A stretch of 64,000 nt of DNA, taken from positions 259,594,001 through 259,658,000 of the forward strand of contig OZ024743.1 in NCBI GenBank assembly GCA_964016885.1, read 5' to 3'. Within the stretch, counting starts at the first letter, position 1. Each line of letters starts with the position of its first letter. This document shows, piece by piece, positions 3,144 through 55,690 of the stretch. The DNA comes from Eledone cirrhosa (lineage: Eukaryota). The notes under the pieces were generated by a model. That model saw only the letters and a list, made by a program, of their open reading frames with translations. It did no database searches and was not told where the DNA came from. Made by a program: the position numbers and the translations under genes.

Positions 3144-3182
3144 TCATTTGATAATGCATAAAAATGGTGAAACCGGTAATAG
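3144..3182 (+). ncRNA. Degenerate minimal hammerhead, U3-A8 core
   Basis: TCAT-TTGATAA-TGCAT(aaaa)ATGGT-GAAA-CCGG-TA-ATAG; palindromic stem III, weak stem I. Confidence 0.55.
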
Positions 3183-3529
3183 ACAATTATTAAATATATA
3201 AATAAATAAATAAATGCCATTGTTAATTAATAAATAAATCAACTAATACCTTAACATTTCACACAAAGTAAAATATTTCGTTTTAATCATTTTCTAACCC
3301 AGAAAACAGAGAGAAATAAATAAAAAGGGAAAAAAATATATTTTTCTTCCTAATAATCGTCTTCTTTTCCCTGTTTCACACATATATATATACGTGTATA
3401 TATATATATATATATATATATATATATATATATATATATATATATATATGTGTGTGTGTGTGTGTATGGGTGTTTACGAACATTTATAAACATACTCAAT
3501 ACGTTTATAAACAATAAACATATGGGTAA

Positions 3530-4440
3530 AGTCGGTATGAAAGAAAGATATTCTTTCGTAACGAAACAAATTATTTTCCTCTGTGAATATATGACAGGGT
3601 TGCCAGTGTGGTTGAAAATGCCAGACAGCGCTGTTTCAGGAATTTCTAAACTTCCATTGGTGTCACTCATTCAACCAGTACAACCGAACTAGAGCATATA
3701 TAGAATTTTGTGTGATGAACATTTTCAGCAGATGCTCATTTGCATATAGTGTGAACTTGGCTGATCCCAATCAACTGGCAGTACCATTAAGACAGCATTT
3801 AAACATAATAGAGGTGCATATGTAAACATATATAGACGTACACATGTCAATGTACACTAATCATATGGACAATCCCGCTATCAAAGAAAAACCTTTTTTC
3901 TTAACAAAAGAAAATATATATATTTTTTTTTTTTCACTTTGTGAATATATCCCACAGTGTCCAGTACTGTTGAGAAAGTCAGACAGCGCTGTTTCAAGAT
4001 TAGTTAATATTTTATCAGTGGCCCAAAATGTATGGGCATGGAAAAGTAAGTTTCTTTGATAACGAGGTTACAGATATGTTTATTTTATATAAAATTACAT
4101 TTTATGTTTATTTATATTTTCATATAACCCTTATTATTATTAAACACAGTCTTAGTGCTGCTGATAATTAATTATAAACAGCCAAGTTCGGACTATATGC
4201 AAATTTCTAGCCGATATTTTCTATTTGCTATATGCAAATGAGCATCGCCAGCAAATGTTCATCACGCAACATTCTATACAGATTCTACTGTATATCCATG
4301 ACAGTGCGGGTTGAGTGAGAGTCACTAATGAAAGATAACAAATCATGAAACAGTCCTGTCTGACATACTGGCAACTATATATATTCACAGAGGAGAATAG
4401 AAAAACAATCTTTTTCGATACGAAAAAAATATTCTTGTTA
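3530..4440. mobile_element. Old foldback/MITE-like element with long degenerate inverted repeats
   Basis: ~3530-3750 is a diverged reverse complement of ~4225-4440 (GATGCTCATTTGCATATAG / CTATATGCAAATGAGCATC; CCTCTGTGAATATAT / ATATATTCACAGAGG); partial third copy ~3930-4000. Confidence 0.6.
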
Positions 4441-4620
4441 AATAGCGTCGCTACCCATGTATTTATTGCATGTAACCGTATAATAATATTTATATATATT
4501 TTCATACACGCCTATTATGGTTAAACGCTATCTTACTGCAACTGTCAATATATATTTATTATATATATATATATATATATATATATATATATATATATAT
4601 ATATATATATATATATATAT

Positions 4621-4780
4621 ATAACGAAGGAAATGTGGTAAGGAACCAGGTGGACCATAACGCACCAAAGTACTCAATACTTGGGGTAGTAGAGTGGGTA
4701 ATAGGAACCAGTAAGACCCCGACAGCTGAGCTCAAGCCGAAACGGCTTGAGCTCAGCTGTCGGGTTCTTACTGGTTCCTA
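4621..4780. mobile_element. Fold-back fragment of an HHR-bearing repeat (same family as 26225-26647 and 62676-62881)
   Basis: Near-perfect hairpin 4700-4739 / 4743-4780 with AAA loop; (TA)n on both sides. Confidence 0.8.
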
Positions 4781-4807
4781 TATATATATATATATATATA
4801 TATATAT

Positions 4808-5115
4808 ATTATAAAACTGACGGCCGTATGTATGTAACAAACTTTTCCCCCAAAAAGCTGGACCAAACACCACCAAATTTGCACCATAAGTGTAACATTT
4901 TTCATGAAGAAAGTGGGGGTATTTTTGTCTACTAAATTTAGTTAAAAGATTAAAGATATTTTATAGTATATTTCAATATTCAGTTCTTTAAAATTTTCAG
5001 ATGTCAACACTTCCGGTTAGCGATCTTTCTCTTTCTTAGTCTGTCTTTTTAGATAGATACATAGCTATAACTTTGCGCCCTTATAATATATGACTGTATG
5101 TCTGGCTGTCTGCAT
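4808..5115 (+). mobile_element. Helitron-like 5' segment, second copy
   Basis: Homologous to 5855-6335 (CTGACGG.CGTATGTATGTAACAAACTTTTC...GCTGGACCAAACA.CACCAAATTTGCACC). Confidence 0.6.
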
Positions 5116-5355
5116 TACAAAAACCATTCTGTACATTAGCTTCGCTATCTGTGTGTGTGTGTATAGCATTCCTTTATACGTATATATACGTATATATACG
5201 TATATATACATACATAAACATATTATTTACAGTTGTATAAAAAAGAAGTATAATTGTTTCTACTTTTGGCACAAGGTCAGCAATTATCCCAGTACATTAC
5301 TGGTACTTTATTATATATAATATATGTAATACGACACTATATATTTTAAACAGTA

Positions 5356-52616: not shown

Positions 52617-53637
52617 AATGGGCATGGTTATAGGAACAGGAAGGACACCCGTATGAACGCGCATGCGCAGAAACCCGGTCACTTCACATAGGCAATACTA
52701 GAATGCGTGCGAGAGGTGTAAGGGAGATAACTGTGAAACTCCGAAAAGTTTTTAGTTGAAAAATAAAATTACAAAGAATCAGTCCGGAGCCTTGTAGTTA
52801 TGCAATAGGTGTTTGGCGACGTGTGGACAACGTGTGAAAAATTAATTTCTCGTGTTTAGGAAATCACTATTGCGTACTCTCTTTAGAATAGTTATTCGTT
52901 CGTCAATACATAAGCCACACTTCGGATTTCCCCTTGCGTATGGCTTGGACTTAGTGATGGTTTTCCATTGAATGGAGTAGTCTATACTTGAGTCCTTGAG
53001 TGACCATACGTAGCTTGCGAGTTTCGTGGATGAACGTCTGTTCGGGTACCTGAAGGTAGACTGGTGGTTCAAAGTTAAACTATGATGCTTCTGCGCTAAG
53101 AACATGAAAACCCACATCACCAGCAGCCCTAGGAGCAACACCCCACCAGGGTGCTCTTGCCGTAAGCCTGAAGCTTGCTGCTTCAACAGCAATGCAACAC
53201 ACCAGCTGTAATTTACGAAGCTGTGGTCACTTCCAAGCGACCAAACGAACCACAGGAGGTCAAATCCTATATGGGCATGGTGGATGGCCGATTTAAGGAA
53301 CGTTTCCTGAACCACCAGTCTACCTTCAGGTACCCGGACATACGTTTATCCACGAAACTCGCGAGCCACGTATGGTCCGTCAAGGACTCAAGTATAGACT
53401 ACTCCATTCAATGGAAAGCCATCACTAAGTCCAAGCCATACGCAAGAGGAAATCCGACGTGTGGCTCCGGACTGATTCTTTGTAATTTTATTTTTCAACT
53501 AAAAACTTTTCGGACTTTCGCAGTTATCTCCCTTACACCTCTCGCAAGCATTCTAGTATTGCCTGTGTGAAGTGACCGGGTTTCTGCGCATGCGCGTTCG
53601 TACGGTTGTCCTTCCTGTTCCTATAACCATGCCCATT

Positions 53638-53677
53638 CCGAGCTGAGGATGCGCTAAGGTGAAACAATTGTTCTCGG
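53638..53677 (+). ncRNA. Minimal type I hammerhead (Naiad pLTR, stem II mutated)
   Basis: CCGAG-CTGAGGA-TGCGCTAAGGT-GAAA-CAATTG-TT-CTCGG. Confidence 0.75.
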
Positions 53678-54421
53678 TATGGTGAACTAACTGTTGTGTA
53701 ACCACTTCTATGTATATATATATATACATACATATATATATATACATAAGGTGTTTCAAATGTTACTATCTATTTTGTTGTACACATTACCATAGAACAT
53801 AGGTAATGACATGCCAGCCACCCTGTATAGTAATAAGTAAAATCCCAACGGAATGGTCACTCCGTTTCGGTTGGTTTGCAAGGGAAAGAGAATTCATTTG
53901 AATATATATATATATGTCTGTGTGTGTGTGTGTGTGTGTGTGTGTGTATGTGTGTGTGTGTGTGTGTGTGTGTGTGTGTGTGTGTATGTGTGTGTGTGTG
54001 TGTGTGTGTGTGTGTGTGTGTGTGTGTGTGTGTGTGTGTGTGTGTGTGTGTGTGTGTGTGTGCGTGTGTGAAGGTAAACAGAAATAACAACACAATCGGT
54101 ACAGTATATGGAAGGAAGATATTAGGGTAACGCTTGAAATAGTATATATATATATATATATGTATGTATGTGTGTGTGTGTGTGTAGTGGGTGTAAACGT
54201 TGACGTGTTTCAGAATACGGTAATGGAATTTGAAGAGCAATACGTATTTGTAGCTTCCGCCATGCTTTGAATACAGAAAATACAGCGAAAACTGGTAATT
54301 CATTTGGATATATATATATATATATATGTTTCTACATCATCCACTCTCATCCCAGGAACAGTTTTGATAGCGCTAGTCCGTAATTTAAATTCATGAATTT
54401 TATATTCTTTGAATGAATAGA

Positions 54422-54505
54422 ACCTTCTGACGAGAAGCTTTCTTTGCAACGAAGGCCGTATGGTCTCCGTTTTATTTTTGGGATTCGAAACCGATCGGTA
54501 AAGGT
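54422..54505 (+). ncRNA. Type I hammerhead, canonical core, in a ~320-bp ORF-less unit between (TA)n tracts (54329-54645)
   Basis: ACCTT-CTGACGA-GAAGC...GATTC-GAAA-CCGATCGG-TA-AAGGT; palindromic stem III, GUA site. Confidence 0.85.
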
Positions 54506-54784
54506 AACTATAGTAGGTAAAGTCAATTTTTTAAAATTTATTTTGAAACTTTTTCATTATTTGCTAAACCTTGTATATATATATTATTATGTTAGACATG
54601 GCCTGGGCCAATACTGGCCGAAACCTATCAAAGTTATCAAAGTTATATATATATATAAATATATATATATATATATATATATATATATATATATATATAT
54701 ATATATATATATATATATATATTTAAATGAAAGGTATAGAAAACATGGCATCGATAATATATATATATAGGAAAGAATATACAT

Positions 54785-55200
54785 ATATCCCTAACATATT
54801 CCATATGTTAGGGATATGAAGAAAAAGTTGAACATATATACTTGGAGTCTTTAAGAATATTTATTTATCATAAATCTACCAGTTTCACAATTTCATGGTT
54901 TTCAAATCTTAAGTGAGATACAAAGGCGTAGAGCTATATTGTGTCTTGCTTGTGACTGGAGTTCGAAAATTCTTTCTTTTATGGAGAGAACCTGGCTTAA
55001 ATTGCTATCCGTTTAAGATACAATCTAATTGGTTGAAGATGATCACGTGAATAAGTATTGAATTTTGAAAGATCTCTAATGTCTCATGACAAAAAGTAAT
55101 TATTTATTTAGATCAAAAGTTCTGACTGACATGGTTTAGTGAAGAATGTATCTCGAGACAATCCAAATCAATCACGGTTCTCTACATTTAATCTACCAAG
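54785..55200 (-). mobile_element. Diverged PLE 3' UTR related to 44074-44660
   Basis: TGGAGTCTTT..ATATTTATTT..TACCAGTTTC..TTTTCAAA and GGTTGA.GA...TCACGTGAATAAG motifs; small terminal hairpin 54785-54817. Confidence 0.5.
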
Positions 55201-55652
55201 TGCTACACATACAGTGACACAGCTACATACATCTCTCTCTCTCTCTCTCTCTCTCTTTCTCTCTCTCTCTCGCTCTCTCTTTCTCTCTCTCTCTCGCTCT
55301 CTCTTTCTCTCTCTCTCTCTCTCTATATATATATATATATATATATATATATATATATATATATATATATATATATAGAGAGAGAGAGAGAGAGAGAGAG
55401 AGAGAGACATATATAAATTAAATCAAAATGGCGTAGGCATTAATTTATTTAATGCTTTGTCAATTTCGGGATATGCAGAATATTGTTAAGTTGCATATTT
55501 GTACAAATAGTGATAATAATAAAAAGGGGAAGAAAAATTAATTTTCACATACATGTTCATGCAGAGGAGAGAGTTCATTTCTCTGTCCATCCTTCTCTGT
55601 TAATAACTTGGTATTTTTACAAATATACAACTTAACAATATTCTGCATATCC

Positions 55653-55690
55653 GCAATTGACAATGCATATAATGCTGAAACCAGTATTGT
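55653..55690 (+). ncRNA. Minimal hammerhead, U3-A8 core
   Basis: GCAA-TTGACAA-TGCAT(ata)ATGCT-GAAA-CCAG-TA-TTGT; lies in an inverted repeat ~55453-55508 / 55617-55667. Confidence 0.7.

Follow-up and report, generated by a model that had tools for sequence, protein, structure and literature searches.

A 64,000-nt stretch of Eledone cirrhosa DNA (GCA_964016885.1, contig OZ024743.1, positions 259,594,001–259,658,000, forward strand; hereafter the window) carries type I hammerheads that belong to the terminal repeats of Penelope-like elements and to one ORF-less retrozyme, and in these a U3-A8 pair fixed within each family is predicted to replace the canonical C3-G8 pair, with weak self-cleavage likely, either as a dimer or helped by protein. 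We put the probability of this reading at about 0.7. Under the proposed mechanism, two copies in a tandem transcript would pair via their palindromic stem III, the active fold would contain a U3-A8 pair, and cutting after UH would free unit-length RNA. Published work describes the hammerhead of a Penelope-like element as protein-assisted (PMC11167929). Most genomic copies, those of the window included, are truncated or inverted dead insertions. The U3-A8 swap is itself already published, and our families are another example of it: natural U3-A8 core variants were reported in 2011 (Perreault et al., PMC3088659, which cites PMC1986816 for U3-A8 being active in vitro), and the min-hammerheads of Penelope-like elements, which include U3-A8 and cleave weakly as dimers, were described in 2014 (Cervera and De la Pena, PMC4209133). 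The novelty implied by an earlier, sequence-only reading of this DNA is therefore lost, and its point that searches for CUGANGA would miss such cores, though trivially true, comes after the publication of U3-A8 descriptors (PMC4209133).

The six TTGANAA heptamers cited in that reading are all present and are surrounded by type I hammerhead anatomy, each being followed by stem II, by a G12-x-A-A box, by a stem III that is palindromic and by a UH site. As it had claimed, position 7 takes all four bases: U at 3148 and 43687, A at 8030 and 23036, G at 26327 and C at 55657. The hammerheads of the window and the features associated with them, by family, are as follows.

3141–3182, forward strand: family A minimal type I hammerhead (core UUGAUAA at 3148–3154; predicted site after A3178)
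8026–8064, forward strand: family B1 hammerhead (core UUGAAAA at 8030–8036), in the right arm of an inverted pair at 6892–8255
7084–7122, reverse strand: inverted twin of the B1 hammerhead (core start at 7118)
23033–23068, forward strand: family B2 hammerhead (core UUGAAAA at 23036–23042; predicted site after A23065; 4-bp stem II; stem III palindrome ACCGGU)
22920–22955, reverse strand: inverted twin of the B2 hammerhead, in the palindrome 22843–23145
44204–44239, reverse strand: B2 hammerhead, 578 bp downstream of a same-strand ORF remnant
44787–45484, reverse strand: broken remnant of a Penelope-like ORF, covering its 3′ part from the RT thumb to the GIY-YIG region and 77–83% identical to the ORF of locus L211
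61308–61343, reverse strand: degenerate B2 copy, with damage to both the palindrome and stem I
43682–43771, forward strand: family C hammerhead (core UUGAUAA at 43687–43693; GUC site, C at 43766; 10-nt palindromic stem III), within a truncated unit at 43575–44008
52121–52210, forward strand: second family C hammerhead (core at 52126)
51784–52447, forward strand: whole 593-bp family C unit (51856–52447), together with 72 bp of the unit before it
26239–26332, reverse strand: family D hammerhead (core UUGAGAA at 26327–26321; G-C stem I of 5 bp; stem II long; stem III long and palindromic; GUC site with its C at 26244)
55653–55690, forward strand: family E hammerhead (core UUGACAA at 55657–55663)
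27109–27203, reverse strand: seventh U3-A8 family, absent from the earlier reading (core UUGAAAA from 27194; 9-bp stem I)
1926–1968, forward strand: canonical C3-G8 hammerhead, located 204 bp beyond the remnant of a Penelope-like ORF (1227–1726) and used as an internal control
54422–54505, forward strand: canonical C3-G8 hammerhead, internal control

The core boxes (N3-UGA-N-N8-A and GAAA), A15.1-U16.1, H17 and the type I order are found in families A, B2, C, D and E and in the 27194 family, whereas in B1 the GAAA box is replaced family-wide by GCAA (A13C, in 3,886 of 3,959 copies); a literature search found no published mention of A13C in hammerhead ribozymes. Stem III is palindromic and would allow dimers. 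When two copies were cofolded, C and D were predicted to form a complete double hammerhead whose core is unpaired, B1 and B2 to form stem II and an intermolecular stem III, and the E and 27194 copies of the window to misfold even as dimers. Open-core stems I, II and III were predicted neither for these two window copies nor for family A, in which the weak stem I of the 3148 motif has only two clear pairs and the core is predicted to be buried within a competing hairpin. The stem III palindrome is broken in the window copy of E and intact in most copies of that family. The five copies seen of the 27194 family comprise three U3-A8 and two U3·G8.

Families A, B1, B2 and D are located in the terminal repeats of elements that encode an RT with a C-terminal GIY-YIG. 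The ORFs of A, B1 and B2 have Pfam RVT_1 and GIY-YIG matches; family D represents the terminal repeats of Penelope-like elements from a second clade, its ORF being Penelope-like by tblastn and tree and having no Pfam match. Hammerheads of B1, B2 and D bracket RT/GIY-YIG-type ORFs as direct or inverted repeats, and we observed both partial tandem structures (direct repeats at loci L121, L203 and L212) and inverted insertions (the 6892–8255 and 22843–23145 pairs above). Family A copies carry the hammerhead 430–450 bp downstream of RT/GIY-YIG ORFs, and the window copy lies within a 3′-repeat fragment of such a Penelope-like element (3067–3449) that is 92% identical to locus L216 over 384 bp. The L211 ORF is 770 aa long, and a PDB search with it returned no match. 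Across A, B1, B2 and E the core, the GC of stem II and an ACCGGUA box are kept and pairs of stems I and II are swapped (G-C/U-A, U-A/A-U), and beneath the kept catalytic boxes the ORFs have diverged to 54–70% identity. Because A, B1 and B2 share one element clade, the families at 3148, 8030 and 23036 are not independent, so that the six heptamer groups are real but represent about three lineages rather than the six families that had been proposed. On the element protein tree there are at least three C-G/U-A switches: three changes are needed, all forced by starred branches, with tree labels assigned by judgement from hammerhead-to-ORF adjacency and 15 of the 34 rows unlabelled.

An exception to the possible Watson-Crick pairing of positions 3 and 8 is a C3·A8 mismatch in 359 of the 3,029 family D copies, a lineage trait tied to a single subtype (97 of the first 100 copies listed). 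The largest and youngest expansion of family D is U3-A8 and is nested inside these C3·A8 copies (branch 100/100), a pattern that would fit a favoured 3-8 pair. Within family D, G8 is slightly more frequent in C3 copies (3 of 362) than in U3 copies (4 of 2,667; p = 0.04), but such copies are too few to use.

With the clean-match cut-off set at a descriptor score of at least 20, the window holds 8 clean U3-A8 matches, against 0.7 matches of any core and 0 of U3-A8 per shuffled window; six matches in a 32-bp minisatellite at 5599–5860 had first been removed as false positives. In an evenly spaced genome sample of 1.4 Mb, from which minisatellite rows (window 5599–5860 and L096; 19 in 1.4 Mb, 14 in its first 1 Mb) were likewise removed, the 207 descriptor matches included 159 C3-G8, 29 U3-A8 and 7 single mismatches, and shuffled sequence gave 10.8 matches in total, with 1.8 U3-A8. 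Rough extrapolation gives about 60,000 U3-A8 among about 400,000 motifs genome-wide, exact pattern matches across four families number over 23,000, and hammerhead censuses that use only CUGANGA would miss at least 15% in this genome (29 of the 188 matches with a paired core). Rfam hammerhead models found nothing in the window at gathering score, a miss that is not specific to U3-A8, since canonical C3-G8 copies were equally unmatched.

These counts leave hardly any room for short-motif matches that arise by chance in AT-rich repeats: TTGANAA by itself ranks second in frequency among the N-TGA-N-N-A classes of the window, and the minisatellite does yield false matches, but full-descriptor U3-A8 matches are about 15-fold over shuffles, sit at the expected place in Penelope-like repeats and have a palindromic stem III, and so chance is refuted for all but the minisatellite. 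Just as improbable is that the heptamers are CUGANGA cores decayed by independent C-to-T and G-to-A changes, even though both are common transitions and genome GC is 35%, because mismatches are scarcer than doubles in the sample (7 vs 29 of 207, beside the 159 C3-G8). The family counts refute decay as well: U3-A8 is the consensus, C3-G8 copies are practically nil (0 of 5,874, 0 of 11,147 and, in family D, 3 of 3,029), mixed families are absent at the clustering threshold used, and stems covary between subfamilies. The joint change of positions 3 and 8 that had been claimed holds between families (Fisher test on copies in the 1.4-Mb sample, p = 4e-27; with one count per locus and family in its first 1 Mb, p = 2e-13) but not within them, where each is fixed for U3-A8 and the proposed within-family covariation check is hence uninformative. 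That the variants are not decay is thereby borne out, but selection for function, the other half of that claim, would remain a suggestion from sequence: copy number is no proof of function, because both the A13C family at 8030 and the C3·A8 sub-lineage of the 26327 family have amplified. The core is genuinely under selection over long times, yet this selection is leaky, as the same two sub-lineages attest.

Those amplifications would also be expected if the U3-A8 motifs persisted as RNA elements that fold or bind protein, or merely hitchhiked, with cleavage negligible and unneeded for spread, an explanation that we consider unlikely although several observations agree with it. Family A has its weak stem I and competing hairpin; a Penelope-like hammerhead was dispensable for insertion in vitro, where hammerhead mutants left insertion unaffected and no reads ended at the cut site (PMC11167929); Naiad elements thrive without canonical hammerheads (PMC8557442); and only a G3-C8 swap rescued activity in a pairwise scan, which covered one type III hammerhead (PMC9901934). 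This explanation fits poorly, however, with the rarity of mismatch-consensus families beside paired ones, with catalytic boxes conserved though ORFs are at 54% identity, and with the nested U3-A8 expansion of family D. Beyond the main reading of family-fixed U3-A8 hammerheads with weak cleavage, we regard as rather doubtful a stronger version, in which the families form a natural mutagenesis series: U3-A8 and A13C would be fixed in an autonomous Penelope family of about 4,000 copies whose hammerhead would still cleave, aided by the family's own protein, and family D would have walked from U3-A8 to C3·A8 and back, the restored pair driving its largest and youngest burst. If true, this would directly measure the weight of ribozyme activity in Penelope transposition. 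The A13C and C3·A8 families are in any case ready-made tests of whether Penelope hammerheads need cleavage.

Like the Cercyon Penelope-like elements of Schistosoma mansoni (PMC4209133), the families here combine type I order, terminal-repeat location, a short stem I and U3-A8, and they share with the Cercyon hammerheads a palindromic 15.2-16.2 region and mostly single dispersed or opposite-strand copies. They differ from Cercyon in host and Penelope-like lineages, in number (over 23,000 pattern matches against about 1,300), in C and D having a stem II and a palindromic stem III that are both long, and in the A13C of B1. The PMC3088659 variants show the same compensatory 3-8 swap and the U10.1·U11.1 start of stem II found here in A and E, but are rare, whereas here entire retroelement families have U3-A8 as their consensus. 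In PAc Poseidon of Anolis (PMC11167929), likewise an RT and GIY-YIG element, the hammerhead lies where the repeat meets the ORF, but that hammerhead is canonical C3-G8 and its 3-8 swap was assayed in vitro, whereas the families here are known from sequence.

Family C appears to be an ORF-less tandem retrozyme-like element, a class expected to be expressed as linear and circular RNA. It has a head-to-tail period of 593 bp with one hammerhead per unit, and the unit has no similarity to Penelope-like proteins at E<0.1; no autonomous partner was found for C or E, nor a consistent ORF for E. Metazoan non-LTR retrozymes (Cervera and De la Pena 2020, PMC7229834; Li et al. 2026, preprint 10.64898/2026.07.22.740005) are similarly head-to-tail and ORF-less, each unit carrying a single type I hammerhead, and are scattered as monomers to multimers, but they form RNAs of 170–400 nt from repeats of 150–450 bp, while family C, known here from DNA, has a longer unit and a U3-A8 core.

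The idea that U3 families avoid A17, a possible partner of U3, was rejected, with A17 in 7 of 12 U3-A8 clusters and 27 of 42 C3-G8 clusters (p = 0.74). U3-A8 clusters carry C17 more often than C3-G8 clusters do (5 of 12 vs 4 of 42, p = 0.02), but the clusters are not phylogenetically independent.

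All six U3-A8 heptamers (UUGANAA) named in the sequence-only reading are present in the window, with cores at 3148 (family A), 8030 (B1), 23036 (B2), 43687 and 52126 (C), 26327 on the minus strand (D) and 55657 (E), and its structural interpretation of them as hammerheads was correct. The window has 35% GC and is rich in microsatellites, and the source genome is 3.0 Gb in size. An Rfam scan of the window at the gathering score returned no match, missing canonical hammerheads too. A custom type I descriptor (in order, stem I, N3-UGA-N-N8-A, stem II, GAAA, stem III, UH, stem I) picked up 19 matches in the window at a score of at least 20, namely 14 U3-A8, three with the canonical C3-G8 pair, one mismatched C3·A8 and one other, against 0.7 per shuffled window. 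Six of the 14 U3-A8 matches are false, falling in a 32-bp minisatellite; a dispersed AT-rich minisatellite of 27-32 bp (window 5599-5860; L096:7650-8260, L numbers denoting other loci of the same genome) mimics U3-A8 hammerheads in descriptor searches. The motifs at 3148 and 8030 lie below or outside the descriptor, the former because of weak stems and the latter because GCAA stands in place of the expected GAAA.

The U3-A8 cores had been read as selected variants rather than decay, and the balance of changes at positions 3 and 8 bears out the rejection of decay. Across 140 evenly spaced 10-kb stretches of the genome, with minisatellite rows removed (19 over all loci), 207 matches scored at least 22 (159 C3-G8, 29 U3-A8, 5 U3·G8, 2 C3·A8 and 12 other), compared with 10.8 in shuffles, 1.8 of them U3-A8. 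Double changes far outnumber single ones (p = 4e-27), also when each family is counted once at each locus of the first 1 Mb (p = 2e-13), so decay is rejected. The proposed 3/8 covariation is seen between families but not within them, none being mixed, and hammerhead function is predicted. The sample (L042-L141, L255-L294) holds ~140 motifs per Mb above shuffle level in ~50 sequence clusters, a rough extrapolation giving ~400,000 per genome. C17 (GUC sites) is enriched in U3-A8 among multi-locus clusters (4/7 vs 0/24, kinship ignored).

Whole-genome pattern counts gave 5,863 U3 copies of family C, with A8 in 99 of the first 100 listed, and 11 non-U3 copies, none of them C3-G8. The 11,147 copies of B2 include 43 C3·A8 and no C3-G8, and the 3,029 of family D divide into 2,663 U3-A8, 359 C3·A8, 4 U3·G8 and 3 C3-G8. 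For A and E, where only the 30 best-matching loci each, a biased set, were read, U3-A8 occurs in 27/27 motif copies of A, and E has 27 intact U3-A8, one U3·G8 and five with damaged G5. A seventh U3-A8 family at 27194 (27109-27203, minus strand; L284:7017) has a 9-bp stem I and U3·G8 in 2/5 copies, and its U3 could pair with A17. An old hammerhead family of few copies, with C3·A8 in the window (3977-4023, minus; 4323, plus) and U3·G8 at L071:9752 (minus), is possibly decayed C3-G8.

Most families could be placed beside Penelope-like elements (PLEs). Family A loci contain an ORF that encodes RT and GIY-YIG domains, the motif lying 430-450 bp downstream. In B1 and B2, related ORFs have the motif on their flanks in direct or inverted orientation, and at L211 the frame is open over 770 aa. 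The ORFs bordered by family D motifs form a second PLE clade; a Pfam search of these ORFs gave no match, so they are assigned by tblastn and the tree. For family E no consistent ORF was found, and its motif resembles that of family A. Inverted pairs around truncated copies in the window (6892-8255 and 22843-23145) match the PLE insertion structure described in PMC8557442. Two carrier features are:
44787-45484, minus strand: remnant of an L211-type ORF, preceding the B2 motif at 44236 in the window
L121:662-5892, minus strand: complete-looking PLE with an open RT/GIY-YIG frame of 715 aa; its direct repeats are 740 bp long, match at 98.6% and each carry a U3-A8 hammerhead

In an unrooted PLE protein tree of 34 rows, 19 of them labelled by the adjacent hammerhead, a procedure by which some labels could be wrong, three changes between C3-G8 and U3-A8 are required, all forced by starred branches. 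A, B1 and B2 share one starred clade, D falls in another, and two further U3-A8 families lie outside both. The six families thus reduce to about three lineages: A/B1/B2, probably including E; D; and C. Family C is a head-to-tail unit of 593 bp, with copies 95-99% alike and no PLE-like coding sequence in the unit; by its anatomy, which fits the non-LTR retrozymes of PMC7229834 and Li et al. (2026 preprint, 10.64898/2026.07.22.740005), this sequence is classed as a non-LTR retrozyme. Low-depth contigs of runs X4 and X6, nominally from two other organisms and aligned to L015:700-1292, span the family C hammerhead with no listed difference at its core positions. Retrozyme-like tandem arrays with C3-G8 and periods of ~310 and ~468 bp occur at L085, L094, L100, L105 and L082.

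Two lineages have amplified with altered cores:
8047-8060 region and 7084-7122, window: B1 motifs with A13C
L234-L247 and L100: family D sub-lineage with C3·A8

B1 carries C at position 13, atop U3-A8, in 3,886/3,959 copies genome-wide, the other 73 having scattered A, G and T, and has its own ORF despite A13C. A13 is probably required for hammerhead activity, as the consensus quoted in PMC7151607 would also suggest. A literature search for 'A13C' with 'hammerhead ribozyme' found no paper, and other papers or supplements may hold the variant. In family D, C3·A8 (359 copies) is a lineage trait, one subtype accounting for 97 of the first 100 listed, and the C3·A8 copies have a mean pairwise identity of 85%, compared with 95% within the young U3-A8 subtype (trimmed alignment). 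In a tree of 33 rows, with seven dropped as duplicates or truncated and the outgroup on a long branch, the young U3-A8 clade is nested among C3·A8 copies and deeper branches are U3-A8; the young burst thus appears to lie inside the C3·A8 sub-lineage. As both lineages amplified, amplification needs no intact core.

Cleavage by the U3-A8 motifs is a candidate function. In its favor, motifs next to ORFs that have diverged to 54-70% identity keep the same core boxes and palindrome but exchange stem pairs, and cofolded dimers of C and D are predicted to form a double-hammerhead fold with an open core; those of B1 and B2 are predicted to form stems II and III only. Against it count the family A core, buried in a hairpin in the predicted fold, the E and 27194 motifs of the window, predicted to misfold, C13 in B1 and the C3·A8 lineage of D. 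The U3-A8 core is an already published variant in an already published context: PMC4209133 reports it in Schistosoma PLEs, with ~1,300 matches by a dedicated descriptor, and describes min-hammerheads as cleaving weakly, and as dimers. The reference list of PMC6765202 includes a paper by Lunse et al. whose title concerns dimeric cleavage by variant PLE hammerheads. The PLE hammerhead is described as assisted by protein and as not needed for insertion in vitro (PMC11167929), a type III hammerhead as rescued by a G3-C8 swap only (PMC9901934), and PMC3884650 treats the C3-G8 pair and G17 competition.

The window also holds long inverted repeats in which no hammerhead reaches descriptor level (29480-29817, 60631-61078, 26684-26917), a strongly C-skewed satellite spanning 9.6 kb and built from 28/54-bp units (12014-21610) and a many-copy, SINE-like dispersed repeat of ~180 bp (24805-24897, 32267-32445, 35767-35969, 37179-37715, 39129-39748).
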